This document shows, one piece after another, positions 7,996 through 45,680 of a stretch of 64,000 bases of DNA. The translations under genes and the position numbers were made by a program. The notes under the pieces were generated by a model that was not told where the DNA came from, searched no databases, and worked only from the letters and a program-made list of their open reading frames with translations. Source of the DNA: Oscillospiraceae bacterium. GTDB lineage: Bacteria; Bacillota; Clostridia; Oscillospirales; Ruminococcaceae. How positions within the stretch are numbered: the first letter of the stretch is position 1; every line of letters begins with the position of its first letter. The stretch is taken from contig JAVBQQ010000013.1 of assembly GCA_031548875.1 (NCBI GenBank), positions 16,227 through 80,226 of the forward strand. The letters run 5' to 3'.

Positions 7996-8071
7996 GCTGG
8001 TGTAGCTCAGTTGGTAGAGCAATTGATTTGTAATCAATAGGTCGGGGGTTCAAGTCCGTCCACCAGCTCCA
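7996..8071 (+). tRNA. tRNA-Thr (anticodon UGU), CCA encoded
   Basis: GCTGGTG-TA-GCTC-AGTTGGTA-GAGC-A-ATTGA-TTTGTAA-TCAAT-AGGTC-GGGGG-TTCAAGT-CCGTC-CACCAGC-T-CCA. The acceptor, D and anticodon stems pair perfectly. The T stem has one G-G mismatch (see findings). Confidence 0.9.
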
Positions 8072-8250
8072 CGATGTACCGTTGAAACTGTATGGTTTCG
8101 GCGGTGCTTTTTTGTTGCCTATGGATGCAATGGTCAAGTTTTGGTCAAGTTGCCCACGCAAAAGTCCAGTGCCAGTGAAAGAGACGCATATCAAATTGAT
8201 TTATATCTTTTGACTGTTTCTATTCATCTGACTAAAAAAATTAGCACAAA

Positions 8251-8282
8251 ACTCACTGGATACCGCATGGTATCCAGTGAGT
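8251..8282 (-). terminator. intrinsic terminator of the cotH operon
   Basis: Stem ACTCACTGGATACC/GGTATCCAGTGAGT. On the minus strand it is followed by TTTTGTGCTAATTTTTTT. Lies 40 nt downstream of the cotH stop. Confidence 0.75.
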
Positions 8283-8322
8283 AGTATTGTTGATTCATTG
8301 AAAAAACGTAGATCTCTTGCAT

Positions 8323-10755
8323 CTACTTGCCCACATTCCGCTTCGACGGCTTCACCCACCGTTTGTTTGAATAACGGGCAGCAAAGACGATTGCTCCAAT
8401 CAGCAAGACACCCAAGACGCCATACATGATCCAATCCCCTGCTGTGAGGGCGGTGGTCTGCGTACCCTGTGTCCCAAGGCCCATCGGCATTCCTCCGCCA
8501 CCTGCAAGCCTTTCTGGAAGACCCGCTCCAGTTTGGCCATCACCTGTGCCCTCCGGGGTTTCTCCATCGGCAGCGCCCGAGAACATCTGCCCAAACTGGT
8601 CGATCATCTCATCCGTTACACCCATCTGGCCCAGCTGTTCCCGCATCTCGTCTGTCATGTTTCCGCCCAGAGCTGCGTCCAATGCCCCGTTTGTGTCCGG
8701 AGCGCTGTCCGTTGCATCTGCTTCCTGCCCCGCATCCGGCACCTGATCTGGCGAGCCGGTTTGGTCTGTTGCACCAGCTGTGGCGTTGTTTTCGTCCGTG
8801 GTTTTGTTGCCAAAACCCTTGAAGTCGCCGAAATCGCCCATGGACATCCCGCCACCCATGCCACCGGCCATGCTGCCCAGCGCAGACATGTTGACACCCG
8901 AAGCATCCACCATTTTTGCGGACGCTTCTTTTTGCCCGTCGGTCGTTGCAGGGATGCTGCCCTCCAGCTGCCCCGCAACACTTTCAGCCCGCAGGGTGAC
9001 GAGTTCCTTGAACACGGGGAGCGCTTCTTCATATTCTTCATAGGTGTAGAAGGGGTTCGTGTCGTTTTTCACATACCCATTGATCTTCGCATCCAGTTCG
9101 TCCACTGTCTGCTCAAACTGGCCGCTGTTCACATATCCCTCCACGATATCATTCAGGTATTCATGGTATTTCTGGGCATATTCCTCCACGGCCAGCAGTT
9201 GGCTCACTAGCGGCCGGTCTTCCATGCTCACGCCGCTGACGGGTGTGTCGATGGGGAAATTGACCACCGAGGAGGCATCCCCGCTTTGAAAGCCGCCAAA
9301 GGAGAGGTTATAGTCCCAGGGCAACACCGAGATAACGCCATCCTTCTCCAGCAGATAATAGTTCTGCTGCATGCTGGAGACATAGCTGTCCAGGTTCACC
9401 ACAAAGGTATGGGCGGCAAGGTACCGCAGGATCTCATCTACATCCCAATATTGTTCCAGGTCTTCCCCTTCATTGAGTTTTTGGATGGCCGTGATGACCT
9501 GCTGCTGGTCGTTGTCCGACACCTTGCTGGACACGGCATTGTTAAAGATGGAGCCGTAGCTCGCTGGATCGTCGTCGGTGTAAACAAGGCTTCCCCCGCC
9601 CGACGAGAACATGTCGCCCATACCGCCCATGCCGCCTTCGGGCATCGACATACCTTCAGGCATGGACATGCCTGAAGGGAACTGGCTTGTTTCTTCATCG
9701 GTATCTTCCCCTGCCGGCTGGGCCATGTCTTCGCCCTTGGGTGCGGCATTTGCAGAAGCATCTGCAGAGGGTTGTACGCTTCCTGCTTCCGCGGGAGGCG
9801 TTCCACCCATCGCGCCAGAGGGTTGCCCGTTTCCAGAGCCTTCAGGCAGTTCACCCTCTTCCATGCCATCGGGAGGTTGCATATTTTCAAACCCCTCGGG
9901 TAGGTCACCCTCCTGCATGCCGTCGGGCGGCTGCATGTTTTCGAACCCTTCGGGCATCTGCATGCCCTCTGGGATCTGCATTCCTCCGGCGCTTTCGTCT
10001 GCGCTGCCCTGCGAGGCGCTTGCATCCCCGTTTCCTGCGGCATCTTCGCCGGTGCTGTCACTGGAACTGCTGCTTTGGCTGTTCTGCGCCTGGCGGTCGG
10101 GACGCACCGGCTCAAAATCGCCCGCTTCAAACTGGCTGCGCTCGCCCATGCCCATCTTCACATTGTACAATTCGCCTGTAGTGGCATTGTATACCCGGTC
10201 CAGGAAGGAATCGTCATACCGCTCTAACAGCAGGAACAGCCCATAGGGCTCGCCGTTCACGGTCACCTCGGCATAGTTGTGAAGAGGACTGGGCACTTCC
10301 AGGTATTCCATGACGTCGTAGCTGATGTAATCTTTCATATAGGTGGCATCACCCATCAGGTTGTTCAGGCACATGGTGTCCAGCCCATAAAAGCTCTGTC
10401 CGTCCACATATTTGTTTGGGTTCAGCTGGAGGCTGTACCGGCCGTTACTGCCACCGCTCATAGTCAGGCTGGAGTTGCCCTTGGTGCGGATGCCCACGGT
10501 AGAGAAGCGCTCCCCATTGATGACTAGGTCGGCGGAGATGTATTCTTTGCTCTGGGCGTTGTCCAAAAGACCCTGCCAGTCCTCCGGGTCGGCTTCGATC
10601 TCGATGGTGACCACCTCGTCATTAAACAGGTAGCGTTCATAATCGGTGGCGGCCGCCTGGGCACTGCCCGCCGCAGAGACCATGAATACACTCCCCACGA
10701 GCGCCAGGCCGACGAATACCGCCACGATGACGGAAATAAATCTGCTCTGAATCAT
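8323..10755 (-). CDS. CotH kinase family protein, membrane-anchored at both ends, with a large acidic low-complexity insert
   Basis: N-terminal signal/anchor (FISVIVAVFVGLALVGSVFMVSAAG). CotH core EVVTIEIEADPEDWQGLLDNAQSKEYISADLVINGERFSTVGIRTKGNSSL...MCLNNLMGDATYMKDYISYDVMEY and ...YLAAHTFVVNLDSYVSSMQQNYYLLEKDGVISVLPWDYNLSFGGF. C-terminal TM (IMYGVLGVLLIGAIVFAA). Confidence 0.85.
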   Translation of the reverse strand: MIQSRFISVIVAVFVGLALVGSVFMVSAAGSAQAAATDYERYLFNDEVVTIEIEADPEDWQGLLDNAQSKEYISADLVINGERFSTVGIRTKGNSSLTMSGGSNGRYSLQLNPNKYVDGQSFYGLDTMCLNNLMGDATYMKDYISYDVMEYLEVPSPLHNYAEVTVNGEPYGLFLLLERYDDSFLDRVYNATTGELYNVKMGMGERSQFEAGDFEPVRPDRQAQNSQSSSSSDSTGEDAAGNGDASASQGSADESAGGMQIPEGMQMPEGFENMQPPDGMQEGDLPEGFENMQPPDGMEEGELPEGSGNGQPSGAMGGTPPAEAGSVQPSADASANAAPKGEDMAQPAGEDTDEETSQFPSGMSMPEGMSMPEGGMGGMGDMFSSGGGSLVYTDDDPASYGSIFNNAVSSKVSDNDQQQVITAIQKLNEGEDLEQYWDVDEILRYLAAHTFVVNLDSYVSSMQQNYYLLEKDGVISVLPWDYNLSFGGFQSGDASSVVNFPIDTPVSGVSMEDRPLVSQLLAVEEYAQKYHEYLNDIVEGYVNSGQFEQTVDELDAKINGYVKNDTNPFYTYEEYEEALPVFKELVTLRAESVAGQLEGSIPATTDGQKEASAKMVDASGVNMSALGSMAGGMGGGMSMGDFGDFKGFGNKTTDENNATAGATDQTGSPDQVPDAGQEADATDSAPDTNGALDAALGGNMTDEMREQLGQMGVTDEMIDQFGQMFSGAADGETPEGTGDGQTGAGLPERLAGGGGMPMGLGTQGTQTTALTAGDWIMYGVLGVLLIGAIVFAARYSNKRWVKPSKRNVGK

Positions 10756-10775
10756 AACCTATCTTCCCATCTGCA

Positions 10776-11444
10776 TCACATGTAGTATTCGCCGTTGTAA
10801 CTTACCAGAACGGCATTCTCCACGCCGGCCACAGCCAACATATCGTTCACAAGTTTGGCAGTGTCTTCCTTCAGCCGCACCTCCAGCGTCAGTTCAATGC
10901 CCTCTTTGGAGACGGACTTGCTTTTCATCATGTATTTTTTGGTTTGTGCCCCCACCAGATCCAGGGCGCTTTTTTCCGCTTCATCGCCGCTGCAGTTCAC
11001 GATGAGGACGTAGGGCGTATCTGTTGTTTTCTTGCTGACAAAAACGAACAGGATGATCCCGATGGCGATGGACCCGATGACGGCGAGCGGGATGAGCCCC
11101 ACACCCACAATGATGCCGGAGGTGATGGCCCAGAATAGAAACACCAGGTCCAGCGGTTCCTTGATGACTGTGCGGAAACGGATGATGGACAGGGCGCCTA
11201 CCATGCCCAGCGATGCAATGAGGTTGGACGAGACGGCCAGGATGATGAGGCAGGTAATCATGCCCATGGCGATGAGCGAGATGGCAAAAGAGGGCGAGTA
11301 CATCACGCCGTTGAAGGTTTTCTTGTACACAAAAAAGATAAACAGGCCCAGGGCAAACGAGATGAGCAGGGCCACAACGATGTCGGTGATGGAAATGCTG
11401 GCGGCCTTGCTTAAAAAGCTGAAGTTCAGGATGTTGTCTAGCAC
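10776..11444 (-). CDS. DUF4956 domain-containing membrane protein
   Basis: ITDIVVALLISFALGLFIFFVYKKTFNGVMYSPSFAISLIAMGMITCLIILAVSSNLIASLGMVGALSIIRFRTVIKEPLDLVFLFWAITSGIIVG. The GALSIIRFRT motif and its position between the VTC and CotH genes are typical. Confidence 0.8.
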   Translation of the reverse strand: MLDNILNFSFLSKAASISITDIVVALLISFALGLFIFFVYKKTFNGVMYSPSFAISLIAMGMITCLIILAVSSNLIASLGMVGALSIIRFRTVIKEPLDLVFLFWAITSGIIVGVGLIPLAVIGSIAIGIILFVFVSKKTTDTPYVLIVNCSGDEAEKSALDLVGAQTKKYMMKSKSVSKEGIELTLEVRLKEDTAKLVNDMLAVAGVENAVLVSYNGEYYM

Positions 11445-11500
11445 GGTTAGAATTCCCCTTTCGGTTCTTGTTATTATTCAGACTTTGGTTTCTTCTTTTT

Positions 11501-12181
11501 TCAGGTGACCAAGCGCGAAACAATGTACTTGGAAAATTCCGTCTCCCGCCTGTCCCCGATCTGCACGGCATCCCGCATGATATCCGGCAGGAATTCGTCA
11601 AACTTGATTTCCAGCAGGACGATGTTGGCCGAAGGGATCGTGACGCATTTCGGGTCCAGGAAATCATGCACATGCTCGCTCGTGCGGATGTTCGAGTCGA
11701 TGGTGATGCGTACGTTTCCCGGTTTGTACACATACGCCTCCCGGTGGTAGTCCACAATTGTGCGGGGTCGCAGTTGCTGGGTCACAATCTTTGTGTATAG
11801 CTCGGCCAGCAGTGGATGGCTCGTATCCATCAGCATTCCATAGTCCCCGTTCAGGATGTCCGTGCACTCTGTGGCGCTCAGTTCGACGGTCTCCTTGCCT
11901 ACAAGGCGTTTCAGCTTGCTTTTCTTCTCCAGCCGGATGAAGGAATCATCCTCCTGATAGTACCGGAACCTAAACTTCTCCCGGCGGCTGGCACCCATCA
12001 GCTTCTCCGTGACGGCTTTGTCCCGATAGTTGTCAAAGTACAGGCTGCGCACCATATAGCCGCCAGTGGGGCCGGTATTTTCGTCCGGCTTTGCCAGGTG
12101 CTTCAAACGGCCGCGCAACTGCATCCAATCGCTATAGTTGATGTAATGCTTTAGTTCATGCCTAAATTTTGTTTCATGCAA
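11501..12181 (-). CDS. VTC-domain (polyphosphate polymerase domain) protein
   Basis: HETKFRHELKHYINYSDWMQLRGRLKHL...GGYMVRSLYFDNYRDKAVTEKLMGASRREKFRFRYY...IVLLEIKFDEFLPDIMRDAV. The probable start is TTG (complement of 12181-12179), just after GAGGGGAGAG. The longer track ORF (to 12382) runs back through a terminator hairpin. Confidence 0.75.
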   Translation of the reverse strand: MHETKFRHELKHYINYSDWMQLRGRLKHLAKPDENTGPTGGYMVRSLYFDNYRDKAVTEKLMGASRREKFRFRYYQEDDSFIRLEKKSKLKRLVGKETVELSATECTDILNGDYGMLMDTSHPLLAELYTKIVTQQLRPRTIVDYHREAYVYKPGNVRITIDSNIRTSEHVHDFLDPKCVTIPSANIVLLEIKFDEFLPDIMRDAVQIGDRRETEFSKYIVSRLVT

Positions 12182-12327
12182 ATCTTGTCTCTCCCCTCTA
12201 GGATGGCTGGCGCACATCCGAAAAATGCCAGTTCTATCTGAACGGTTCAAATGGTAGCAAGCCTGCCTTAAAAATAGCTTTAGCCAGTGGTGAAAATTTT
12301 GTGTTTTCTCGGGAGAATCACAGCAAA

Positions 12328-12355
12328 AAGAGGCCATGCATCCGCATGGCCTCTT
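12328..12355 (-). terminator. intrinsic terminator after the histidine kinase gene
   Basis: Stem AAGAGGCCATGC/GCATGGCCTCTT with loop ATCC. On the minus strand it is followed by TTTTTGCTG. Confidence 0.7.
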
Positions 12356-12378
12356 TTCTCGATGAATAGCCGCATCCA

Positions 12379-13659
12379 TCATGCAGTGGGCAGGACCACC
12401 GTGAAGGTAGTTGATTCTCCAAGGGTACTCACCGCCTGGATCTGTCCCTTGTGCTGCTGCACGATGGCCTGCGCGATGGAAAGCCCCAGGCCGTAGTTGT
12501 TTGTTTCCCGCTGCCGGGCATCGTCGCCGCGGTAAAACCGTTCAAAGATATGGGGCAGGTCCCGCGGGGCGATGCCGGCACCAGTATTCTCCACGCGCAG
12601 GTTGGCTTTCCGTCTGTCCGCACGTAGTTGCAGCTTGACCGCCCCGCCGACAGGCGTGTATTGGATGGCATTTTCCAGCAGGATATGCACCAGCCGGCGA
12701 ACATCCTCCCGATCTCCCAACATCGTTACCTCCTCGGCCACTGATGAGGAAAACTGTAGATTTTTTTCGAACATGACAGCCTCCATGGGAAGGATGCAGC
12801 TCTGCACCGTATCCGAAAGGGAAAATCGCTTTCTTTCACGCGACGGTACATCAGAATCGGCTCTCACCAGGGTGAGCAGGCGGGTAGTGAGGTGCTGCAT
12901 ATGTGCAGTTTCCGCCTCGATGTTGCCCAGCCACTCCATCTGGGAGGCAACGCTTTCATCCGGGTGAGACGTGAGAAGCTCTAGATTTGTCTTGATGGCG
13001 GCTACCGGGGTTTTCAGCTCGTGGGAGGAATCTTGTACGAAGCGGCGCTGGTTGTCATATGCCTCTTCAATGGGCGCCACCGATCACTTGGCAAACCACC
13101 GGCTCACAAACCAGATGACCGCCAGCATACATATAAAAACGATTGCAGATACGATGACGAGGTTGACCCGATAAGCCCTCGACTCGCTTGTTTCAATAAA
13201 GGCAATGCGATAGGTGTTGCTGTCACCATCCATGGAAACCCGGTACGTCCAGGTATCCTCCCCCTGGGTGAAATGCCCTGTATACCCATCCTCTACACGC
13301 ACCTGTTCCAGCATAGCGGGCACATCGATTGCCTCCATGTTGAAAAAAGGATTTGACCCGATGGGTGCATAGCTGCCATTTGTGACCCGGACAGCGAAGC
13401 CGGCCTTTGGAATACTCATGTCTGGGTCCAAACCTGCCGGTAATTCTGTAGGGTTCGGTTGCAGGGTAGATATCCCGGCTTCAGGCCAGGGCAGGGCGTT
13501 GTTGTTGGGCAGGGTAAGCAAGGTGTTCAATCCCACATCCAGCTCTCGTTGAGACGTCGAATAGGTGAGTGTGTATACAATGACAAATGCAGCAAGCATC
13601 AGCAAACTGATGACCAGCATGTTCATCCGGATGAACCCGCGCCGCAATTTTTCAAACAT
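12379..13659 (-). pseudogene. sensor histidine kinase interrupted by one in-frame TGA (track ORFs 13084..13659 and 12379..13080)
   Basis: The upstream part is TM1, a periplasmic domain and TM2, ending ...VIWFVSRWFAK. Then comes TGA (complement of 13086-13084), followed in the same frame by SVAPIEEAYDNQRRFVQDSSHELKTPVAAIK (H-box) ... ENTGAGIAPRDLPHIFERFYRGD ... GLGLSIAQAIVQQHKG. Confidence 0.8.
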
Positions 13660-14347
13660 GGTCCTTCTCCAGTTTGTACCCCATGCCGCGGATAGTCACG
13701 ATAGAACAGTCCGAGTGGAGATACTTGAGTTTTTTTCGCAAAAAAGAGATATACACCTCCACATTGTTGTCCTGGGTCTCACTTTCAAACCCCCAGGCGT
13801 TCACAATGATGGCTTGCTTGTCGCAAACGTTGGCAGCGTTCCGCATGAGGCACTCCATCACCAACGCCTCCTTGCGGGACATGGAGACTGTGCGGCCATC
13901 TTGTGTAAACAGCCGCAATTCCGGCACATCCAGGGATGTGTTGCCACAAAAAAGAGCGCCATCGCGGGTTATAGGCTGCCCTTTTCTCCGCGTGATGGAG
14001 CGAAGGCGGGCCATCAGCACCGTTGAAGAGAAGGGCTTAGTGAGATAATCATCGGCCCCTTTGTCCAGCCCTGTCACGACGTTTTCATCCTCGCCAAGGG
14101 CAGTGAGCATCAGAACAGGAGTCGCGACGCCTTGCGCGCGCAGCTGCTCCAACACTTCAAGTCCATTTAACTGGGGCAACATGACATCCAGGATGATTGC
14201 CTCATAACTGCCGGACAGGGCGTAATCCAACCCGTCACGCCCATTGTGCACACATTCCGCTTCATAATTTTTTTCGCGCAGCATTGCCGCCAATGGCAGA
14301 GCCAGATGCTTCTCGTCTTCGATAATCAGGATGCGCAGAGCTATCAC
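13652..14347 (-). CDS. OmpR-family response regulator
   Basis: RILIIEDEKHLALPLAAMLREKNYEAECVHNGRDGLD...ILDVMLPQLNGLEVLEQLR...GADDYLTKPF, plus a winged-helix C-terminus (VYISFLRKKL...IVTIRGMGYKLEKD). Overlaps the kinase start by 8 nt. Confidence 0.9.
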   Translation of the reverse strand: MIALRILIIEDEKHLALPLAAMLREKNYEAECVHNGRDGLDYALSGSYEAIILDVMLPQLNGLEVLEQLRAQGVATPVLMLTALGEDENVVTGLDKGADDYLTKPFSSTVLMARLRSITRRKGQPITRDGALFCGNTSLDVPELRLFTQDGRTVSMSRKEALVMECLMRNAANVCDKQAIIVNAWGFESETQDNNVEVYISFLRKKLKYLHSDCSIVTIRGMGYKLEKDHV

Positions 14348-14779
14348 CGTCCTTAACGCTTCTGGTGCTATTATACCAGAAACATCTTTAGGAAAGCTTA
14401 ATTAGATACGCGTTAGCACTTTGACATAGTGTTTTTACAAACCATACAAACCGTAATTAATTGGTACTGTCCCTATTCATCTGTGCAGGGTTGGTTCACA
14501 AAAGGGGCAGATGGTCCATGCGCAAAGTGCCTTGCCTGTCATGTCTAATAACGCGTCTGCCACTCCGCACGGGAGTGGGCAACTGCCTATGCCCCAACGG
14601 CAAATGCCGTTGGATTGGCCCAGGCCATACGTCCGAAACGTGGTCGCCCTCGGCACCTGCGGCCTATACCGAATGCTTGCGATACGGGTGCAAAGTCCGT
14701 ACGTAACAACAGTTCGGAGGTACAAGTGCCTGTTCCCGGCACGGACAAATCATTTCCAGCCCGGCTTGCTACCGGGCCT

Positions 14780-15418
14780 CCCGCGGGCCAGGTCTGATTT
14801 GTCTACGCCACTCATTGTGCCGCAGGTGGTACGTGCGCACAGCGCCCTGCCTTACGTTCGAGAACGCACCTGCAACAAGGGCGTTACTTGGAAGTCAAGC
14901 AACACCAACGTGTGGCCACCGTCAGCGCCAACGGCAAGGTAAAGGGCATTTGGAACGGCACGGCCACCATCACCGCCACCGCGAAAGACGGCAGCGGCAT
15001 GAAGACCTACTGTAAAATCACCGTGAAGCAGACGTTCATCGCAACCCCGATGGTCACGAAGATGGCCCTCAGCAACACCAAAACCGTTAAAATCACTTGG
15101 ACAAAATCCGCGAAGGCCACCCACTATCAGGTTTACCGTTCGACCAACTCCAACAGCGGGTTTAAGCGCATCGCCACCGTGAAGGGCACGTCGTACACGA
15201 ACAAGAACCTGACCGCAGGCAAGACTTACTACTTCAAGGTTCGCGCGCTCAAGAAGGCCAAAAGCGGCAAGAAAACCTACAGCGGCTACAGCACCGCAAA
15301 GCCCGTCAAGATGAGTGCCGTAAAGCCCCGCAGCACAGCCGTATTATTATCAGGCCGCGCAACCACAGCAACCATACTATGCTTACCAAACCCCTCCCCC
15401 ACTGCCACCAAATGGTAA
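14780..15418 (+). pseudogene. decayed fragment of a Big_2 / fibronectin-III surface protein gene
   Basis: The Big_2 domain is spread over three frames: ...CLTFENAPAT / NKGVTWKSSNTNV / ATVSANGKVKGIWNGTATITATAKDGSGMKTYCKITV. A GT dinucleotide duplication sits at about 14911-14914. One FN3 unit follows (KITWTKSAKATHYQVYRSTNSNSGFKRIATVKGTSYTNKNLTAGKTYYFKVRA). There is no start, signal peptide or anchor; the left boundary is approximate. Confidence 0.6.
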
Positions 15419-15520
15419 GCCGCGCAAAGGCTTAGCGTTTCCCTTGACTACTTCAAAACTATGCGCGGAATTGTTTGGCCTGCATAGGATATAGTGACCA
15501 CAGAACTATATATCATTCCG

Positions 15521-21783: not shown

Positions 21784-21829
21784 CCCCACAAAAGTCGGGG
21801 GAAAAACCGGAGCCGGTCCACCAGCTCCA
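21784..21829 (+). repeat. tRNA-Thr-3'-end-like structured motif, copy 1
   Basis: CCCCACAAAAGTCGGGGGAAAAACCGGAGCCGGTCCACCAGCTCCA. The last 14 nt are identical to tRNA-Thr positions 8058-8071, and GTCGGGGG is identical to 8041-8048. Confidence 0.85.
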
Positions 21830-22263
21830 AAATAGCGCGATAAATCATTTGATTTGTTGCGCTATTTCGTGTTGAACCACCGACTTTTATGTGGCCATTC
21901 TCTGCTTCCTGTTTGTCGTCGCCCCCACTCATTAAACCATCAATGGTGCCTTTTCTTTGCACTTAACTCAAAAATGCTCTTCTCGGGGGACTCCCGCTCT
22001 GAAACTGTGCGCGGTATTGCATTGTCGGCGTTGGATATAGTGAATATCATTATGTGATAATTGACGATGGGTTAGGCGGCATTTGAAGTGATACCAATTG
22101 TAGAATATAGAAAATGAGAATCTGAAGGGCAGGCAAAAATCAAAACTCACACGTTTAAAACAAGGCAAATGGACAATATTGGCGCACGCTTAAGGATAAA
22201 AACATTCACCGCTGTCGCGGCTACACCGGCAGACCGTAATATCGCACTGTCCACCCGCTGCCC

Positions 22264-28718: not shown

Positions 28719-28765
28719 CCCTCACAAAAGTCGGGGGAAAAACCGGAGCCGGTCCACCAGCTCCA
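28719..28765 (+). repeat. tRNA-Thr-3'-end-like structured motif, copy 2
   Basis: CCCTCACAAAAGTCGGGGGAAAAACCGGAGCCGGTCCACCAGCTCCA, identical to copy 1 from CACAAAAG onward. Confidence 0.85.
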
Positions 28766-29147
28766 TCTAATGCCAACAATAAAGCTGTCATGCGATTTTT
28801 TCACAATTCATCGCTTTATTGTTAGCTTTTTATTGGGATTTTTCACTTCGCACCGCGGGCTGTCATCGGCGTCCATTTGCGAACTGAACCTGCAGGGATA
28901 GCTTTGTCAAAGAACTTGGCGCTGAATAATGGCAATCATATTTGCAGCGTTCAGTTTTCTTTTTCAACCTCTATAGATCTACGGCAGAGATCAATCCGAA
29001 CAATGCACAATAGACAATCACTGATTTTATGTTATATGGAATGCCACTAAGTATAACAACCAAATTATCGTCAATCGTAATTATTATTCAATCAACTCTA
29101 CTGGCGGCACACACGAAAACATATCACGGAATATACGATGAAAAAGA

Positions 29148-35917: not shown

Positions 35918-35919
35918 CT

Positions 35920-36111: not shown

Positions 36112-36260
36112 CAACAAGGTTCCACAAGAGGCTACCGCTGCGCGACAAACCACGACCATCTATTGCTACTTTGGTGCAAAGAAATGATAGCATCGTTTTT
36201 AACTATGATATGCTTGTTTTGTTCCGAATGCGCATGACAGCCATTTTGTAAGCATTACAC

Positions 36261-36745
36261 ATTTTACCCACGACCGATTTTAACGTCGATGTGATGTTGA
36301 AATCGGTCGCTTCTTTTTTGCGCGGAGCGCTGGCGACATCGATGCGCTCAATGAGCAAGTGAATGGCCTTGTCGTCGGCTGCATTTTTCAGCGCTTCCAG
36401 CCAGGTGTAGATTTGGTCCGTCGTGTAATCCTTGGGCGGCTGGGCATCGCGCAGGCCGGCCATCTCGTCCAGCAGGCGCTGCATCTCTTTCCCTATATTC
36501 GCCACCACCTCAGCCGGCAGGTCCGGGTTTGTCATGTTGTGCATCAGGCCGTCGTATTCCTTCTGCTTGCGCGCCACTTCCCTGTCCCGCGCCTTTTAGA
36601 ACTCTGCCAGGTCATTGTTTGAGGCACCCTGGTACTTCTTCAATGCCTCGTGGATGGCCTTCTGCACAGCGGGCGAAAGCAGCTCTTTCAGGTACCGGGT
36701 CGCCGCTTTGTCCACAGCCTCCATCTTTACCACCGGCGCGCCGCA
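36261..36745 (-). repeat. recombinase-3'-end repeat, copy 1 (homologous to 45680-46174)
   Basis: By-eye alignment shows about three dozen substitutions and one 10-nt indel over about 485 nt. Confidence 0.8.
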
Positions 36746-36865
36746 ATGCTGCATGCAGCGGTAGTAGATGTACTCGTGCCCCTTGCGCTTGGATATATGC
36801 GCATGCATCTTGCTGCCGCACTCACAATACACCAGCCCGCTGCACAGATAGCTGCGCTTATCCAT
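36261..36865 (-). pseudogene. large serine recombinase, C-terminal fragment only, with TAA nonsense codon
   Basis: DKRSYLCSGLVYCECGSKMHAHISKRKGHEYIYYRCMQHCGAPVVKMEAVDKAATRYLKELLSPAVQKAIHEALKKYQGASNNDLAEF, then stop (complement of 36598-36596), then KARDREVARKQKEYDGLMHNM...ERIDVASAPRKKEATDFNITSTLKSVVGK. The resolvase catalytic domain is absent. Confidence 0.8.
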
Positions 36866-37400
36866 ACCGGCCGTAGTTGCAGGCCAGTTCGATGATCCGG
36901 CTACGCAATTCGTCTTCATCCGCACGGTTTACCTGTTGGTATCGCGCCACCTGTTGGCTAATCTGTATCGCCCGGCACGCGCGGCGTTGGCTCACCAGGT
37001 ACTTTTCCTGCACCCGTTGCATCACCAACCGCCGTTTGGCCGGTCGGCGCATATATGCGCATGAAGTTTCCCTCCGCCACATCCTTCAGTATGGCGTTGT
37101 CCAAGCTCAAATCCGCCACCAGTTTCTTCAGCCTGGCGTTCTCTTTCTCAAGTTCACGGTATTTACGCGCTTCAGATATATTCATGCCACCGTATTTCTT
37201 CCGCCAGTGGGAGTAGGTCTGCTCGCTCACCCCGATTTGGCGTACCGCCTCCCCGATGGTTTTCCTTGCCCGCATAAAACTTCTACCTCGCGCAATTTTA
37301 TGATGACCTGTTCCGTTGTGTGGTTCACTTTTTCCATTCTGCACACCTTCCTTTATGGTGGAGAAAGAAGGGCACCGCAATTACCACCATCCGTATTTAA
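36863..37400 (-). mobile_element. IS3-family insertion sequence fragment (frameshifted orfA plus first ~70 codons of orfB)
   Basis: orfA reads MEKVNHTTEQVIIKLREVEVLCGQG(frameshift)KTIGEAVRQIGVSEQTYSHWRKKYGGMNISEARKYRELEKENARLKKLVADLSLDNAILKDVAEGNF. The orfB frame reads ...AKRRLVMQRVQEKYLVSQRRACRAIQISQQVARYQQVNRADEDELRSRIIELACNYGRYG and stops abruptly at the junction with the recombinase fragment. The right boundary is not defined. Confidence 0.75.
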
Positions 37401-37416
37401 ATATCCTCAATATCTG

Positions 37417-37728
37417 TCAACAGTAGGTGTTATTGACAAAAAAAGAGAAAAAAAGTTGACCAAACAAATCAATCAAATGCGATGCGATTCGGTCAGGAAT
37501 GACTTGATACATGGAAGAACGGATACCATATGATGCGAGCATAGTGAAAAAAGCGCTAGCATTACTGATGTAGGACTGGATGCAGGCTTCATCGTCACAG
37601 ATGGCCATCAGATGTTCCAGATTGTAAAAATCCGCTTCATACGCCCGGCAAAGGGCCAGACAGGAGGGTTTGCTTTCCGATGAGAAATTGGATTGACAGA
37701 ATTGTTTGTGCGGGTACAATGTAAGCAT
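37417..37728 (-). CDS. hypothetical protein (103 aa, A/T-rich, possibly a remnant)
   Basis: Open frame only. Its composition differs from neighbouring genes and no family is recognised. Confidence 0.25.
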   Translation of the reverse strand: MLTLYPHKQFCQSNFSSESKPSCLALCRAYEADFYNLEHLMAICDDEACIQSYISNASAFFTMLASYGIRSSMYQVIPDRIASHLIDLFGQLFFSFFVNNTYC

Positions 37729-39736: not shown

Positions 39737-39741
39737 CCCAG

Positions 39742-40443
39742 GTGAAAAAAGACGACAAAGCAGTCATCCTGCTCGTAGAGGACAACCCGGCTATACAGGA
39801 GGCAAACAAACGGATATTGGAAAGGGCAGGCTACAACCTGATGGTGGCCGACACACTGGCCGCCGCGCGCGCGGCGATACAGGAAACGCTGCCGGATGCG
39901 ATCGTGCTGGACATCCTGATGCCGGACGGCAACGGACGGGATTTCATCGCCGAGATACGCAAGGTGACGACCGCACCGGTATTGCTGCTGACCTGCCTTA
40001 CGGAGAAGGACGAGAAGCTGCAGGGCCTGCGCGCCGGCGGCGACGACTACATCACAAAGCCCTACGATATCGACGAGCTGCGCGAGCGCGTGGCCGCCTT
40101 TTTGCGCCGGGATGCCCTTGTGCGCAGCAGCGCGGGACAGGACGTCACTTTCGGCCCGCTGGCGCTCAACCTACCCGCCCGCCGGGCGTACATGGCCGGC
40201 AAGGACCTGCAGCTGCTTGGCAAGGAGTTCGACATCCTGCATCAGCTTGCCTGCAGCGCCGGCCGTCCTCTAAGCGCAAAATCCCTGTACGAAGCGGCCT
40301 GGGAGCAGCCCTTCGCCGGCGGCGGCAGCGCGGTGTGGACGCAGATATCCCGCCTGAAACGGAAGATGGCGGAGAACGGCGGCGGCATCCAGATTATCAC
40401 CCTGCGGGGAGAGGGGTACCAATTGGAAATGGCCGGGCCGTAG
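39742..40443 (+). CDS. OmpR-family response regulator
   Basis: GTG start. AVILLVEDNPAIQEANKRILERAGYNLMVADTLAAAR...DAIVLDILMPDGNGRDFIAEIR...GGDDYITKPYDIDEL, plus a winged helix (...VWTQISRLKRKMAE...IITLRGEGYQLEM). Confidence 0.85.
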   Translation: MKKDDKAVILLVEDNPAIQEANKRILERAGYNLMVADTLAAARAAIQETLPDAIVLDILMPDGNGRDFIAEIRKVTTAPVLLLTCLTEKDEKLQGLRAGGDDYITKPYDIDELRERVAAFLRRDALVRSSAGQDVTFGPLALNLPARRAYMAGKDLQLLGKEFDILHQLACSAGRPLSAKSLYEAAWEQPFAGGGSAVWTQISRLKRKMAENGGGIQIITLRGEGYQLEMAGP

Positions 40444-40590
40444 GCAGGATCCGGCAGAGAAAGCAAAACCGCCTTACATTTCTGCAAGGTTCACGCGCAA
40501 ACGCTAAAAAACCAGTATAATAAAAAAGCAAGAACAAATTTCGCAGCCCGCCCGCGTCCCATCGTATTCGTGTGAACGGAGGAAACGAGG

Positions 40591-43500
40591 ATGAAATATC
40601 TGGCGAAGTGTTTTGCGCTTTTTTTGGCCCTGATGATGTTGGTGAGCTTTGTGCCGCTCTCTGCGCTGGCGGCCGAGGCGGCGCCGGGTGCAGGCAGCCA
40701 GACAGCGGCCGACAGCGCCCCTGCGGCTGACGGCGGAGAGGATGCCGCAGCTTCCGGGACGGAGGAGGATGCGGCGGCACCCCAGCCGGGTGACCTGTCG
40801 GACGATTCCTCTGACGGTGTAGTCGACGGCGATGAGCCGATCGGGCCGGAAGACGAACCGGGAGATGTCTCCAACAGCGAGCCCGCCGGTGAGCCGGAAA
40901 GTGCAAGCACCCAGCCGGAACCCCCCGCGGCGGCAGCGCAGGGCGCTTCGGGCAGCATACCTGTGCAGCCGAACACAGCTAAAAACGACCCGGACAAGGA
41001 ACTTGCCACCCCGGCCGGAGACGAGGACCTTGTGCGGCCGGCCGGCACTTACGCGGTGGAGAACGATTTAGATAGCGGCGCGGGCAGCCTGCGCGCGGCG
41101 TTGACCGCGGCGATAGCCAGCACGGACGCATCGAGCACGATCACGATCCCGCTGAGCCTTTCCAACCAGGTTTCGACGGAGATATCCCTGAACTCCCCCC
41201 TGCCGGATATCCCGAGCGGCAAGAGCATCACAGTCACTTCGCCGGCGACGGATCCCCAATTGTGCATCATTGCGCGGGCGGGCAGTACCGTTACCGGCAA
41301 CACTTTCAATGTTGCGGCCGGGGGCAGTTTGCAGCTTTCGAACATGGAACTGGAGGATCTCACGGATACGGGCATGAAGTCCTCACTGGCAAGCAGCATG
41401 GGCACGTTCACGGCAACCAACGTGAACTTCGTGGGCGGTGGCAGGCAGACGCAGTTTACGATATATGGCGGTGGCCTGGATGTGAGCGGGGGTACCGCCA
41501 CGCTGACAAAGGTGCTTTTTATGGGCAACTGCGCCCAGGATGGCGGCGGCCTTGCTGTGCGTGGCACGGCAAGCGTGACGGTGAAATCGGGCGAGTTTGA
41601 CGCGAACGCAGCCATTTCTAGCAACGGAAGAGGCTCCGGCGGCGGCATCTACTTGGCTGCCACGGCCACACTGAACCTGGGCAGCGCGGGCAACACCGTA
41701 CAGATCCGGTGCAACAGGGCCGGCCTGGACGGCGGCGGCCTGTACAGCGAGGGCGGCAACCTTACCTTTGCCGGGAACGTGATTGTTGGCGGCGAGGACC
41801 CCGGCGTGGCGCCTTATACCTCCCCAAACGCCGGCGATGGCAACGAAGCCAAATATGACGGCGGCGGCATCTGCCTGAGGTATGGCGAAACCGATACCAC
41901 TTCAAAGTATATCAAGGGCGTCACCATTCAGAACAACCGTGCCGGCTGGAACGGCGGCGGTGTGTATGTATATGGGAAGGTGCTACTGTCTTTTCAGGCA
42001 GGCACACGGATCCTGGACAACAAGGCCCTGGGCACCGCTACTGCCTCCGTGGGCAACGGTGGCGGCATCTACTGCGCCGCTGCCGGTACGGGGGGCATAT
42101 ACACCTCATTGGGGAGTATTGACGGGGCGGCGGTGACCCTGGCGGGCAACCGGGCCGCGAGGGATGGAGGCGGCATCTGGCAGAATGCCGGGACCATGAA
42201 TATTGGGGCAACCGCAGTTATTGGCGGTGCAAATGCAGGCGCGGGCACCAGCGCCGACCCCGGCGACGGCAACGTGGCGGCCGGGTTTGGCGGCGGTGTG
42301 TACAACGCGACCACGAATATCTTTGATATGAATGGGACGGTGAAAAACAACGTGGCCGCGCGTGGGGGCGGGGTCTATATCCCCAGCTCGACCTTCATGC
42401 GGTCGATAGATGCAACCATCGAAGGGAACAAGGCGACCTCCTTGGCGCAGGCGACACCCGGCGTTGAATTTACGAGCACCACGCAGCTTTACCTCAGCGG
42501 CACCACCGTGATTGACAGCTTGTACTGTGCGAAATCCCTGGCAAGTTCTCTTGCCATCTTGCCGGAAGGTCTTTCCGCCGGAGCGCGCATCGTGGTGCAG
42601 GGCAGCGATACGGCGGGGCAGATGGTTTCCGGCGTGGTGGTGGCCAACAAGCCAAGTGGTACGCTGACCGAGGCGGAGGCCGCCTGCTTTGTGAGCGCGG
42701 ACGGCGAGCTGCACGCTTTGGCAAGCGGCCAGAACGTGGTGTGGGATAGGTCTTGGTTGATTGCAACGCCGGTGATGACACTGCAGAGCGCGGCGCATGA
42801 CAGCATACAGGTGAGCTGGAACGCGGTGGCAGGCGCGGACGGGTATGAGATCGAAAACGCGACGTCCAGCAGTGGCCCGTTTACACCTGTGCGGACGGTG
42901 ACGGACGGGAGTACCTCCTGGACGCATACGGGGCTTACCACAGCGCGAAACCAGTTTTACCGCATGCGCGCGTATACGCTGGTGAATGGCGCAAAGCAGT
43001 ACAGCGCCTACACCGCCGAGCAATATACAATGCCCCTGCCTGCCGCGCCGTCTGTAAGCGCAACAGGCCGCAGCCCGGCGGATATTTATCTGGAATGGAC
43101 GGCGGCAGCGGGCGCCGGCAGCTACACCGTGGAAAGGGCAACTTCGCAGGCGGGGCCGTGGACCGAGGTGAAAGCGCCGTATCCAAGCGATACGAACCTG
43201 GTATACCGGGATACAGGGCTCACCCCGAGCAGCACCTATTACTATCGCGTGTGTGCCGTTGCGTATCAGGGGTCAATCACCGTTCCCGGGCCGTACTCGG
43301 CAATCGTGAGTGCGAAGGCAGGGATTGGCACCCCGGCGAATTTTAAGCTGACGAAAGAGAACCCGTACCAGTTTGCACTTTCGTGGAACAGTGTTCCTTG
43401 GGCCAACGGGTATGAGTTGTGGCGCGCCACCCAGAGCAGCGGGCCGTATACGGTGGTGGTGAGCAGGTACATGAGTATGTATACCGACTACGACCTTGTG

Positions 43501-44733
43501 GACGGCCAGGTGTATTACTACCGCATGCGCGCCTATGAGAACGTGAGCGGGACAACGTATTACAGCGGCTATACGCCGGTGGTGAGCAATAAAGCCGGAA
43601 TGGCGGCGCCGGGGAGCATGGCGGCAACGGCCGTCCATCCGGATGACGTGAAGCTTAGCTGGGGCGCCGTGGCAGGTGCAGAGCTCTACAATGTGGAGCG
43701 CGCAACGGCTGCAAGCGGGCCGTGGGTGGTGGCCGCGGATTCTCTCACAGACCGGACATACACAGACACGAATCTTACTTCGGGCACGACTTACTACTAT
43801 CGTGTGCGTGGCAAAATGTGGCAGAACAGCGCAGCCGCATATGCATACGGCCCATACAGCGCCGTCGTATCGGCGCGCCCCGTTTTTGCGGCGCCGGCGG
43901 GCCTTGCCGTGAGCACCACGGCCACAAGCGCAAAGCTTACCTGGAAAGCCGTTGCAGCGGCCTGGGGGTATGAGGTCTGGCGCTCGACCACCAGCAGCAC
44001 GAGCGGGTTTGAGCAGATCGAGTATATACAAAACAAAGCGACGACGTCCTATACGGACACGGGACTTGCCGCGGGCAAAACCTATTACTACCGTGTGCGG
44101 GCCTGGCGGTGGAGGGGCGGGGAGGAGATATTCAGCTTAAACAGTGCTATAACGGCAAGAACGCTGCCGGCAAAGCCGGGGAGCTTTAAGGCGGCAAGCG
44201 CTTCGTACAACAGTGTCAAGCTTACCTGGAGCAAGCCGGCGGGGGCCTCGGGCTATGAGGTGCAGCGGGCCACCGGCAGCGGCAGCTACAAGACGGTGAA
44301 GACGATTACGAGCGGCAGCACTCTCAGCTACAAAAACGGCAGCCTGAAGACCGGCACGAGCTACAAGTTCCGCGTGCGGGCCTATCGGCTGGTGGGCGGT
44401 GTGAAAAAGTACGGCGCGTACACGGCTGCCAAGACGGCGAAGCCCGTACCCGCGAAGGTGGCAGGCGCAAAAGCCACGGCGGGCAGCAAGAAGGTGGCGC
44501 TGAGCTGGAAGGCCGTGAGCGGCGCAAGCGGGTACGAGGTGAGGCGCGCGACGTCAAAAGGAGGAACCTACAAGACCGTGAAGACGGTCAAGGGTGGCAA
44601 GACGGTCAAGTTTACGAACGCGAAACTGACCCCGGGGAAGAAGTACTATTATAAAGTGCGGGCATACCGCACGGTGAACGGCAAGAAGGTATACGGCGCC
44701 TATTCCACCGTGGTGAGCGCAAAGGCGCTATAG
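40591..44733 (+). CDS. 1380-aa secreted surface protein: acidic linker, Pmp-type parallel beta-helix repeats, then about 10 tandem fibronectin-III domains
   Basis: Signal peptide MKYLAKCFALFLALMMLVSFVPLSALA. Repeated GGG(I/L/V)(Y/W/A) beta-helix turns (GGGLDVSGG, DGGGLAV, GGGIYLAA, DGGGLYSEGG, NGGGVYVYG, NGGGIYCAA, DGGGIWQNAG, GGGVYNAT, GGGVYIPS). FN3 units have W..V.GA.GYE(V/I).RAT...GP...V...T.YTDTGLT.G.TYYYRVRA. Confidence 0.85.
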   Translation: MKYLAKCFALFLALMMLVSFVPLSALAAEAAPGAGSQTAADSAPAADGGEDAAASGTEEDAAAPQPGDLSDDSSDGVVDGDEPIGPEDEPGDVSNSEPAGEPESASTQPEPPAAAAQGASGSIPVQPNTAKNDPDKELATPAGDEDLVRPAGTYAVENDLDSGAGSLRAALTAAIASTDASSTITIPLSLSNQVSTEISLNSPLPDIPSGKSITVTSPATDPQLCIIARAGSTVTGNTFNVAAGGSLQLSNMELEDLTDTGMKSSLASSMGTFTATNVNFVGGGRQTQFTIYGGGLDVSGGTATLTKVLFMGNCAQDGGGLAVRGTASVTVKSGEFDANAAISSNGRGSGGGIYLAATATLNLGSAGNTVQIRCNRAGLDGGGLYSEGGNLTFAGNVIVGGEDPGVAPYTSPNAGDGNEAKYDGGGICLRYGETDTTSKYIKGVTIQNNRAGWNGGGVYVYGKVLLSFQAGTRILDNKALGTATASVGNGGGIYCAAAGTGGIYTSLGSIDGAAVTLAGNRAARDGGGIWQNAGTMNIGATAVIGGANAGAGTSADPGDGNVAAGFGGGVYNATTNIFDMNGTVKNNVAARGGGVYIPSSTFMRSIDATIEGNKATSLAQATPGVEFTSTTQLYLSGTTVIDSLYCAKSLASSLAILPEGLSAGARIVVQGSDTAGQMVSGVVVANKPSGTLTEAEAACFVSADGELHALASGQNVVWDRSWLIATPVMTLQSAAHDSIQVSWNAVAGADGYEIENATSSSGPFTPVRTVTDGSTSWTHTGLTTARNQFYRMRAYTLVNGAKQYSAYTAEQYTMPLPAAPSVSATGRSPADIYLEWTAAAGAGSYTVERATSQAGPWTEVKAPYPSDTNLVYRDTGLTPSSTYYYRVCAVAYQGSITVPGPYSAIVSAKAGIGTPANFKLTKENPYQFALSWNSVPWANGYELWRATQSSGPYTVVVSRYMSMYTDYDLVDGQVYYYRMRAYENVSGTTYYSGYTPVVSNKAGMAAPGSMAATAVHPDDVKLSWGAVAGAELYNVERATAASGPWVVAADSLTDRTYTDTNLTSGTTYYYRVRGKMWQNSAAAYAYGPYSAVVSARPVFAAPAGLAVSTTATSAKLTWKAVAAAWGYEVWRSTTSSTSGFEQIEYIQNKATTSYTDTGLAAGKTYYYRVRAWRWRGGEEIFSLNSAITARTLPAKPGSFKAASASYNSVKLTWSKPAGASGYEVQRATGSGSYKTVKTITSGSTLSYKNGSLKTGTSYKFRVRAYRLVGGVKKYGAYTAAKTAKPVPAKVAGAKATAGSKKVALSWKAVSGASGYEVRRATSKGGTYKTVKTVKGGKTVKFTNAKLTPGKKYYYKVRAYRTVNGKKVYGAYSTVVSAKAL

Positions 44734-44790
44734 GGCGGAAGGGAAGAGGATTCTCCTTGGGCCAAGATAAGAGAACTTAAAAGCGCGAGT

Positions 44791-45250
44791 TCAATACCAT
44801 GCGCCGGGTCTACGCCGAGCTTGTCGTAAAGAGCCGGGAGGATCTGTCCAAAGTGATATTCGGCTTATCCAACGCAACAACACTTTGGGCTCTGTTTTTG
44901 CTTCGCCCAAGCCCGTGATAATGCTATCTAGCCGTAATCCCAAATTACGCTTTAGCGCATAATCATTTTGAATCGATTCAATTAATTCTTCCAAAATTGA
45001 AGGGACATATTTGGGGTAATACCTATCAAGAGTTTGTTGGGTATCTAAGATGTCATAGATTCTCTTGGCTTCGAAGCATAGGGTCGAGGAATTATGCATT
45101 GGTAGTTTATATGTGTCCGGCGTATTTGAGTTGAGCGTTTTTTCAGTTACTTGGAAAAACAAGAACAATCATTCCATGTTTGAATCGCATTTCCAATGCT
45201 TTGGCACTCTATTAACCACAATTACGCCTCCATCATGCACACTACTAAAA
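44791..45250 (-). pseudogene. A/T-rich gene remnant of unknown family (in-frame TGA, foreign GC-rich tail)
   Basis: The reverse frame reads ...VHDGGVIVVNRVPKHWKCDSNME, then stop, then LFLFFQVTEKTLNSNTPDTYKLPMHNSSTLCFEAKRIYDILDTQQTLDRYYPKYVPSILEELIESIQNDYALKRNLGLRLDSII..., and runs into a GC-rich nonsense tail. Confidence 0.35.
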
Positions 45251-45632
45251 CACTATAGCACGATGATGCGCATCATAGAATAGTATTCTCAATATTTACT
45301 CTAGTCTTCCCAACAAGCAAATAAGTTCATACTCTCTTACCGCATATATCCATCCATCGGGACAAACAATACTTATAAAGTCCAGTTCTTCTTTTGGCGA
45401 TTTAAAACCTGTAAATGGTATCTGATATGAAGAAAACTACTCTTTGGCATCACGTTGTACATCCAAATCGGGCATATAAACATCTATACATTTTGCTTTT
45501 GGCTTTTTCCCTGTCGAATACAAATACACTTTAATCACCTCCATAGACTGCTCCTTATTAGTCATGGTGTTTCCGGGGTGCATTTCTATGCACTCATTTT
45601 GTATCATATACTGTCGTTATTTCTTTGTCTCT

Positions 45633-45680
45633 CCCCCCACAATAGTGGGGGGAATAACCGGAGCCGCTCCACCAGCTCCA
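45633..45680 (+). repeat. tRNA-Thr-3'-end-like structured motif, copy 3 (diverged)
   Basis: CCCCCCACAATAGTGGGGGGAATAACCGGAGCCGCTCCACCAGCTCCA. It directly abuts the 3' end of the serine recombinase pseudogene. Confidence 0.8.

Follow-up and report, generated by a model that had tools for sequence, protein, structure and literature searches.

Genomic context of the tRNA-Thr locus

The DNA analysed here is a stretch of 64,000 nt (hereafter the window) from an Oscillospiraceae bacterium (NCBI GenBank assembly GCA_031548875.1, contig JAVBQQ010000013.1, positions 16,227 to 80,226 of the forward strand), in which a tRNA-Thr(UGU) gene is followed by three copies of a short structured motif that ends in the last 14 nt of that tRNA. 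An earlier examination of the letters and open reading frames (ORFs), hereafter the sequence-only reading, had taken these copies for the junctions of a tandem array of three integrated segments. Our analysis suggests that the motif probably belongs to the attachment (att) site of elements encoding a large serine recombinase (LSR), two decayed genes of which are present in the same region. The tRNA gene, the motif copies and their immediate flanks are as follows.

7996..8071, plus strand: tRNA-Thr(UGU), the putative target (attB-bearing) gene, detected by ARAGORN and by an Rfam tRNA match of 69 bits.
8076..8117, plus strand: intrinsic terminator belonging to the tRNA gene, with a stem of 14 bp and then TTTTTTGTTG (terminator scan; fold -20.2 kcal/mol, z -4.9).
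21784..21829, plus strand: motif copy 1, comprising the outer hairpin strand, a P half-site at 21794-21818 and the tRNA-identical inner 11 nt at 21819-29.
21830..21867, plus strand: perfect hairpin with a 17-bp stem directly after the CCA of copy 1 (fold -21.6 kcal/mol, z -6.3).
21877..21894: inverted outer motif CCACCGACTTTTATGTGG, 47 nt after the CCA of copy 1 and beyond a 41-nt palindromic stretch.
28719..28765, plus strand: motif copy 2, with a P half-site at 28730-28754, attR-type.
28772..28826, plus strand: hairpin and then TTTTTATTG, to the right of copy 2, similar to a tRNA terminator (B') flank (fold -16.3 kcal/mol, z -4.0).
45633..45680, plus strand: motif copy 3, with a P half-site at 45645-45669, contiguous with P' and the LSR body, attP-type (P-core-P').

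The 3'-terminal 14 nt of the tRNA gene (GTCCACCAGCTCCA) recur downstream as the sequence-only reading had described, with exact occurrences at 8058, 21816 and 28752 and one mismatch at 45667, all of them direct and on the tRNA strand. When up to two mismatches were allowed, the 14-mer gave eight matches against 0.57 expected, a number reached in 0 of 100 shuffles. Each of the three downstream occurrences is preceded by a left arm of approximately 32 nt, and the 46-nt motif thus described was also recovered: compared with the copy at 21784, the copies at 28720 and 45635 agree at 45 and 42 of the 46 positions, respectively, copies 1 and 2 are identical over 41 nt, and no further copy exists on either strand of the window. 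All four sequences part exactly after ...GCTCCA, as had been noticed before, and about 48 nt are common to the three copies only. Strong hairpins begin at or just after the CCA at 8072, 21830 and 28766 (z -4.9, -6.3 and -4.0). A search of the window against Rfam returned the tRNA only, and the motif matched no family.

Serine recombinase remnants and the identity of the left arm

Two dead serine-recombinase fragments had been reported from the sequence, both on the minus strand and one abutting copy 3, and both were found again, together with a transposase relic.

36260..36859, minus strand: LSR pseudogene remnant 1, with the zinc-ribbon, coiled-coil and C-terminal regions (amino acids 284-483 of the intact LSR of the related genome L053).
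36960..37500, minus strand: IS3-family transposase fragments, consisting of OrfA with HTH_Tnp_1 (Pfam E 5.8e-12) and the start of OrfB, seen in a six-frame translation.
45604..46481, minus strand: LSR pseudogene remnant 2, consisting of a resolvase-domain fragment at 46176-46481 (Pfam Resolvase, E 2.7e-13) and a C-terminal part at 45604-46119, with amino acids ~130-320 missing.

Remnant 1 shares 62.5% identity with the L053 LSR (tblastn, E 2e-83), its Zn_ribbon_recom match of 24.5 bits lies just under the cutoff of 25.3, and the IS3-type fragments are located directly upstream of it, truncating it. Its P' end starts at CA followed by TTTTACCCACG; to the left of it, there is no P arm and only a small part of the core. 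The two remnants are approximately 90% identical at the DNA level, and their similarity starts exactly at CA followed by TTTTACCCAC, which is the tRNA-CCA boundary. The reading frame of remnant 2 passes unshifted through the 14-mer and the left arm, running ...TSTLKSVVGKM and then ELVERLRLFPPLLWGERQRNNDSI before a stop codon; on the minus strand, the tail at this attP-type junction is ELVERLRLFPPLLWG... Because the LSR frame is unbroken through copy 3, the motif represents the 3' end of the recombinase gene. The left arm, for which the sequence-only reading had recognised no att site or repeat family, is therefore better understood as the P half of an LSR attP that encodes the C-terminal tail of that LSR.

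The other copies retain traces of the same frame. The minus strand of copy 1 encodes ELVDRLRFFPRLLWG... and reads ELVDRLRFFPRLLWGDE... in the LSR frame, and copy 2 reads ELVDRLRFFPRLL followed by a stop, its tail ORF being shortened by a TGG to TGA change. Copies 1 and 3 differ at four nucleotides, three of which occupy third codon positions, a pattern that is suggestive only (p about 0.1 by our own estimate). The direct repeats of the tRNA 3' end (14 nt) in the window always carry the LSR P arm, and no tRNA fragments other than the 14-mers were found in the window. No intact integrase was present among the window ORFs scanned, in agreement with the sequence-only reading, and none of these ORFs matched the tyrosine integrase family (Phage_integrase).

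Several smaller details of the remnants were also observed. Remnant 2 contains an in-frame stop at 45820-45822 (IYT, stop, LEAL) at a position where remnant 1 has Trp (IYTWLEAL), and remnant 1 has a stop of its own in ...LAEF, stop, KARD. The sequence to the left of the orphan P' end (36230-36262; GACAGCCATTTTGTAAGCATTACA followed by CATTTTACCC) holds a second CCATTTT, which resembles the CCA/TTTT boundary 17 nt upstream.

The right flank of copy 1 is more complex than that of copy 2. The hairpin at 21830-21867 resembles either a tRNA terminator (B') or a 41-nt palindromic insertion. The inverted motif beyond it, CCACCGACTTTTATGTGG, agrees with the P-arm hairpin motif on the opposite strand at 15 of 18 positions (about 0.04 chance matches expected per window by our own estimate), and the 8-mer CCACCGAC within it is also found in the P' arm of the tRNA-Thr-type LSR in locus L109. 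Possibly, then, 21877-21894 is what is left of a P' half-site and copy 1 was formerly a junction of the attP type; a hairpin would seem to have split the old P' from the tRNA sequence. We also considered an apparent decayed LSR coding region on the right of copy 1, but rejected it because Smith-Waterman scores were not significant against shuffles.

Database scans for the motif returned no further copy with the left arm. A scan of 185,579 GTDB species representatives with GGAGCCGNTCCACCAGCTCCA gave 45 matches, none of which has the left arm; all of the 45 lie inside genes of high-GC organisms and encode LELVxRL on the opposite strand. Scans of IMG/VR and the JGI metagenomes for the Thr-type P arm and for tRNA followed by P' gave 0 matches.

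Intact elements with the same architecture

The most informative comparison is with the related genome L053, in which the gene order S49 peptidase, GNAT, HflX, SPFH and NfeD is syntenic with 1.5-7.8 kb of the window. Its LSR is intact (494 amino acids, comprising the Resolvase, Recombinase and Zn_ribbon domains), shares 60-65% identity with the window remnants and ends antisense inside the syntenic tRNA-Thr(TGT) as ...SVVGKL followed across the boundary by ELVDGLEPPTC and a stop. A diverged copy of the motif (CCCCCACAAAATTCGGGGGGAACATATAACTGCTCTACCAGATCCA, with three mismatches to the tRNA in its core) is located 7.9 kb away in the expected orientation, and this distal copy is followed by a terminator-like flank and then by the core genes HPr and PtsI. 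The L053 element (1161-9160, ~7.9 kb) also contains a tyrosine-integrase-like gene (3561-4559), a Big_2 protein and a helix-turn-helix (HTH) regulator. The relatives retrieved have at most 89% identity in SPFH, most of them without a tRNA at the corresponding position; the placement of tRNA-Thr beside NfeD is not conserved, being missing in L046, L052, L054 and L055.

Homologs of the LSR C-terminus end in ...STLKSVLGEIGCGGRI followed by a stop, and in one case in ...GRGDRIRTCDLLVPNQ..., a translation of the antisense strand of a tRNA. The LSR gene of L047 runs antisense into tRNA-Met and stops within the T-loop; a 14-nt direct repeat 8,346 bp away bounds a small element with HTH regulators and an AAA_25 gene. 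The distal junction of this element has the order tRNA-terminator hairpin, core and P arm; its attR carries the hairpin of the tRNA terminator at the place where copies 1 and 2 of the window are followed by strong hairpins. Elements of ~8 kb between 12-14-nt direct repeats of the tRNA-Met 3' end are found in both L047 and L089, in each case with the stop codon of the LSR in the T-loop and a tRNA terminator at attR, and L049 has the same LSR/tRNA arrangement as L047 at tRNA-Pro. The attP state is represented by L050 and L051, which have no tRNA and in which the LSR ORF continues through the tRNA-like core into a tail. Among 60 related IMG/VR loci, tRNA-Met begins exactly at the LSR end in approximately 36.

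The tail itself appears to be a peptide. In the Met subfamily (IMG/VR loci L062, L064, L089, L090, L097, L100, L103, L112 and L115, together with L047, L050 and L051), the tail has the conserved form GCGGxQHx(L/F)PxILF(R/K)(Y/F), encoded by 13 distinct P arms among the IMG/VR loci; it reads GCGGxQHxLPxILF... in the attP state and GCGSWI followed by a stop in the integrated state. Variation is found mostly at the third codon position (entropy 1.08 vs 0.70 and 0.48), and the tail is therefore a conserved, translated peptide; as the same nucleotides also form the P half-site, the stretch is dual-coded. An (F/L)-P-x-(I/L)-L-(F/W) is likewise present in the window tail, as far from the CCA boundary as in the Met subfamily.

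Accretion of further islands does occur in this LSR family. In L109 (10045-11452), the LSR abuts the 3' half of a tRNA-Thr, which is followed by an island with a tyrosine integrase of 404 amino acids, and in L067, L070 and L110 (11413-20200) a partial tRNA-Met lies beside the LSR and a full tRNA-Met 8.7 kb further; in these loci a second island displaced the LSR element from its tRNA. The intact small relatives (L047, L089 and L109; ~8 kb) encode an integrase, a CI-like HTH regulator and an AAA_25 primase/helicase-like gene, and L047 also has a weak capsid-like match.

Geometry of the putative attachment sites

Six attP sequences were reconstructed (window copy 3, a window hybrid, L053, L047, L050 and L051), and in 6 of 6, from two subfamilies, the best dyad centre falls between tRNA positions 65 and 66. 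Mapped onto the tRNA of the window, this centre gives the following putative site, whose midpoint lies between C8060 and C8061.

8041..8080, plus strand: putative 40-bp attB, placed by mapping the dyad centre of the attP-type sites onto the tRNA; B half-site at 8041-8060 (GTCGGGGGTTCAAGTCCGTC) and B' half-site at 8061-8080.

Around the centre, the motif has the form GTCGGGGG-N9-GGAGCCGG-TC/CA-CCAGCTCC-N6/7-CCCAC(A/G)AC, where the slash marks the centre. The distance from the centre to the start of the outer motif GTCGGGGG is 25 nt in the repeated motif and 20 nt in the tRNA. Sliding the outer part of the tRNA half-site along the P arm gave a sharp peak of matches at a shift of +5 (10 of 13 positions in copy 1 and 9 of 13 in copy 3), with no more than 7 of 13 at any other shift. 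The peak is at +5 or +6 in the Met subfamily (7 of 13 in L047, 6 of 13 in L089) and at +4 in the L053 relic, which is 1 nt shorter. For the Listeria LI integrase (Rutherford et al. 2013), attP and attB half-sites of 25 and 20 bp have been described, and the motif contacted by the zinc-ribbon domain is shifted by 5 bp toward the centre in attB relative to attP (PMC3783163); the 5-bp shift and the 25/20-bp half-sites of the window match this rule. The outer motif of attB coincides with the T-arm of the tRNA (antisense TTGAACC...), and this could explain in a simple way how the clade switches from one tRNA species to another. The minus strand of the motif folds into an 8-10-bp hairpin followed by TTTTT that scores as a terminator, and this hairpin is the att dyad itself.

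A crossover at the CCA end was also considered because all breaks of similarity fall there and the junction at 36259 would be explained by it; this candidate was rejected as the main model, as there is no dyad symmetry at that point and the outer motifs would lie 30-35 bp from the centre.

The tRNA-Thr keeps its own terminator, and its site therefore looks like an unoccupied attB that is at present empty and reusable. Some further observations concern the tRNA and its surroundings. By our own cloverleaf reading, its T-stem (8044-8062) has a G51-G63 mismatch (GGGGG/CCGTC), the L053 tRNA (9085-9160) has the same T-stem sequence with the same mismatch, and position 63 is C in copy 3 and in the L053 relic. 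A perfect palindrome with a 14-bp stem lies at 8251-8282, between the tRNA terminator and the stop codon of the CotH gene, with a terminator score on both strands.

Probable integration scars of LSR elements at the tRNA 3' end

Taken together, these data suggest that the motif is probably one side of the att site of LSR elements that insert into the 3' end of tRNA-Thr(UGU), and that the window holds the scars of such elements. The continuity of the LSR reading frame, the homologous architecture in other genomes and the half-site geometry are direct observations on which this reading is built. The family would include small satellite-like islands and 30-50 kb prophages of Clostridia that use an LSR for tRNA 3' ends. 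As protein, the minus strand of the motif would correspond to the last ~16 LSR codons in the non-integrated state, ELV(D/E)RLR(F/L)FP(R/P)LLWG; as DNA, it would form a 25-bp P half-site with the inner motif GGAGCCGG and the outer motif GTCGGGGG. Crossover would take place after this half-site, at the CC of tRNA positions 65/66, and the 11 nt beyond it, equivalent to tRNA positions 66-76, would restore the tRNA upon insertion. The 20-bp B half-site would come from the tRNA, where the distance of GTCGGGGG and the T-loop from the centre is 5 bp smaller. Integration would set the LSR gene antisense against the tRNA (attL) and leave P, the core and the tRNA terminator at the far end of the element (attR). 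On this basis, copies 1 and 2 are read as attR-type scars like that of L047, copy 3 as an attP-type junction between two adjacent decayed elements, and the junction at 36259/60, where unrelated DNA is followed by CA, P' and LSR remnant 1, as an orphan P' end. We infer this crossover position, and likewise that elements integrated and decayed near the tRNA-Thr on no fewer than three or four separate occasions. The window copies are relics, and nothing in the window is a working system.

A number of points weigh against this interpretation. The 36259/36260 junction keeps only the CA of the core before P', of which a crossover at 65/66 gives no account. No P' or LSR remnant lies beside the tRNA or, at the protein level, to the right of copies 1 and 2 (there is no LSR trace at 8072-8322, 21830-22263 or 28766-29147), which leaves attR scars 13.7 and 20.7 kb from an apparently empty attB unaccounted for. 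None of the single dyad scores (13-15 of 25) surpasses the best shuffled scores, and the dyad evidence, which is modest, would lie in the coincidence of the centre position across two subfamilies rather than in individual scores. The outer motif is not recognisable in the B' flanks, and the L053 relic has CT, not CC, at the proposed crossover as well as one more mismatch in its tRNA-derived part. Neither an intact relative of the window LSR at more than 65% identity nor a second Thr-type attP was found. Recombination itself is a prediction, and the mechanistic steps beyond the sequence architecture would have to be read in the same manner.

Alternative histories of the locus

The sequence-only reading had proposed that 8072-21829, 21830-28765 and 28766-45680 are three immobile whole elements accreted one after the other, with a motif copy at the right end of each. 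Part of this proposal stands, namely the att relics of the tRNA-Thr 3' end and the nature of copy 3 as an attP-like internal junction, whereas the three whole segments do not. In its favour, the copies are all direct repeats on the strand of the tRNA, copy 3 forms a genuine attP-like junction inside the array and copy 1, with its inverted outer motif beyond the palindrome, may be another, and accretion at a tRNA is known in the LSR family from L109, L067, L070 and L110. However, an element of this type must begin with P' and an LSR against the tRNA, and a terminator is found there instead; the first two segments are without this obligatory start and without LSR or tRNA debris, and the third is a composite rather than one unit, as it is split by the P'-LSR junction at 36260. 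Nor does the array end at 45680, because an LSR remnant starts at 45681. When each proposed boundary was examined for a junction between units, P-core-P' was seen at 45680 and possibly at 21829 but not at the tRNA, 28765 or 36259. In addition, LSRs do not normally recombine attP with attL or attR (PMC3783163), and serial insertion at one tRNA would thus need attB to be regenerated each time; the palindrome that separates copy 1 from the inverted outer motif hints at a route by which this may have come about.

Composition and gene content bear on the same proposal. The fall in GC at the tRNA, which had been noticed earlier and is consistent with accretion, is real: 64% for 1-7995 vs 54.5-58% per block to the right, including 45.7-64 kb. 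Against the expectation of discontinuities at the motif copies, GC and tetranucleotide profiles change only once, at the tRNA, without a border at any of the copies, and the low GC continues to 64 kb, such that either the whole right 56 kb is accessory or the left 8 kb is unusually GC-rich. The segments are also without mobile-element genes. Between the copies lie a CotH/VTC/DUF4956 cluster (8323-14347, in which CotH kinase, DUF4956 and VTC-domain genes stand beside a two-component system), an iron-type ABC transporter, MoeA, a MalT-like regulator, a C11 peptidase, PucR with flavoproteins, a histidine kinase and an fn3 protein of 1,380 amino acids; no phage, conjugation or integrase genes are among them, and the genes of 46-64 kb are equally ordinary. 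CotH of the first segment is 52-58% identical to its nearest homologs vs 87-89% for the neighbouring SPFH, a difference that would favour accretion and suggests accessory status, no more; a search for CotH homologs gave no usable synteny. On balance, accretion of three whole elements is an unlikely history of the scars.

Another history, which appears rather improbable to us, is that copies 1 and 2 were made at other tRNA-Thr copies or loci and moved here with their right flanks, either by homologous recombination between related LSR elements or through deletions in which the partner tRNA was lost together with most of the element, the intervening genes being ordinary chromosome. Such rearrangement would be consistent with three different terminator-like flanks after a tRNA-Thr 3' end, with ordinary genes in the segments and no compositional steps between them, and with the unconserved placement of the tRNA beside NfeD; the two ~90% identical LSR remnants and the IS3 fragment would be available as substrates. 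It is difficult to reconcile with the lack of tRNA fragments besides the 14-mers in the window, and several independent deletions would be needed, each sparing a P arm of ~50 nt; moreover, the 41-nt identity of copies 1 and 2 suggests young or related events.

Finally, a dispersed repeat, terminator cassette or small structured RNA (e.g., a tRNA-like 3' module) with no role in recombination is very improbable: the motif does fold well, with a terminator-scoring hairpin on its minus strand and a second hairpin (CCCCAC/GTCGGGG) that has one compensatory change in copy 3, but Rfam sees only the tRNA, the left arm has 0 copies in the GTDB representatives, IMG/VR and JGI metagenomes, the hairpin is the att dyad, the motif is in frame with the LSR ORF, and L053 has the same element end at the expected distance from an intact LSR.

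Comparison with known systems

The LSR integration scars proposed here have their closest mechanistic counterparts in LSR phages such as Listeria A118/LI, Bxb1, phiC31 and SPbeta, with which they share the Resolvase, Recombinase, zinc-ribbon and coiled-coil domains, the location of the integrase gene at the element end beside attP, and a putatively pseudo-palindromic attP with 25-bp/20-bp half-sites and a 5-bp shift of the outer motif (PMC3783163). The domains, the dyad and the shift agree or are compatible with an LSR attP/attB system, in which catalysis is predicted. Unlike these phages, the elements proposed here target the 3' end of a tRNA gene and rebuild it with 11-12 nt carried in attP, and their LSR ORF crosses attP such that its C-terminus changes on integration. 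In reviews, tRNA 3' ends have been assigned to tyrosine integrases, and serine recombinases to intragenic, gene-disrupting sites with very short repeats (PMC5704250, PMC9262239). A survey of LSRs makes no mention of tRNA in its main text (PMC10083194), and we found no description of serine integrases at tRNA 3' ends, or of this clade, in the open-access literature.

The nearest parallel is integration-dependent immunity, which likewise combines an attP inside an ORF, a tRNA attB and a swapped C-terminus. In mycobacteriophages BPs, Brujita and Charlie (clusters G, N and P), attP is contained in a phage ORF, at its 3' end, and attB shares sequence with a tRNA gene, so that on integration the C-terminus is replaced and a new stop codon is supplied by host DNA (PMC9262239). 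There, the repressor is split, the integrase is a tyrosine integrase and the lost tail is an ssrA-like degradation tag (PMC9262239); here, the serine integrase itself is split, and the tail is (F/L)-P-x-(I/L)-L-(F/W). The split is also limited to the end of the protein. Archaeal integrases of the SSV1 type are tyrosine recombinases with attP within the int gene and a tRNA target, and a split of the integrase body inactivates the gene, whereas only the last ~16-30 codons are exchanged in the LSRs described here. Accretion of the ICESt1/ICESt3 type and the formation of cis-mobilizable elements (CIMEs) depend on tyrosine integrases able to use attL or attR. The window resembles these in that direct repeats of an att core enclose DNA without an integrase and that one internal junction (copy 3) is attP-like, but LSRs normally cannot use attL or attR (PMC3783163) and the segments are without element-side left ends. 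The small relatives carry a gene set similar to that of phage satellites resembling phage-inducible chromosomal islands (PICIs) and may be such satellites, but their integrase is an LSR; unlike these intact relatives, the window copies have lost the integrase, regulator and AAA_25 genes.

Implications for the LSR family

A broader and tentative possibility, which we consider doubtful at present, is that a clade of LSRs has become specialised for tRNA 3' ends, with an attP-crossing ORF whose integration-dependent tail acts as a state sensor and with hairpin insertions that restore attB. The zinc-ribbon domain would read T-arm DNA (TTGAACC...), mimicked by attP 5 bp further out, and the inner contacts would read the acceptor stem, allowing retargeting between tRNA-Met, -Pro and -Thr. 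Since the integrase ORF crosses attP, the (F/L)-P-x-(I/L)-L-(F/W) peptide would be present only in the non-integrated state, and integration would swap this C-terminal peptide for residues encoded by the tRNA antisense strand; the tail could thus sense the integration state, tuning the stability or directionality of the integrase. The attP dyad and its T-run also form a terminator-like hairpin inside the LSR ORF. Hairpin insertions right after the tRNA could turn occupied sites back into attB, enabling serial capture.

For the window, the finding means that an unexplained structured repeat probably becomes ordinary biology, in the form of scars of dead integrative elements. For the family, it draws attention to a clade of serine integrases with many members in public data, as illustrated by the ~36 of 60 IMG/VR loci at tRNA-Met, and that departs from the usual rule giving tRNA 3' ends to tyrosine integrases. 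The attP and attB of this clade are legible straight from the sequence, which is useful for the discovery of integrase tools, and a C-terminus of the integrase that depends on integration is a testable regulatory idea, parallel to the integration-dependent immunity of mycobacteriophages.

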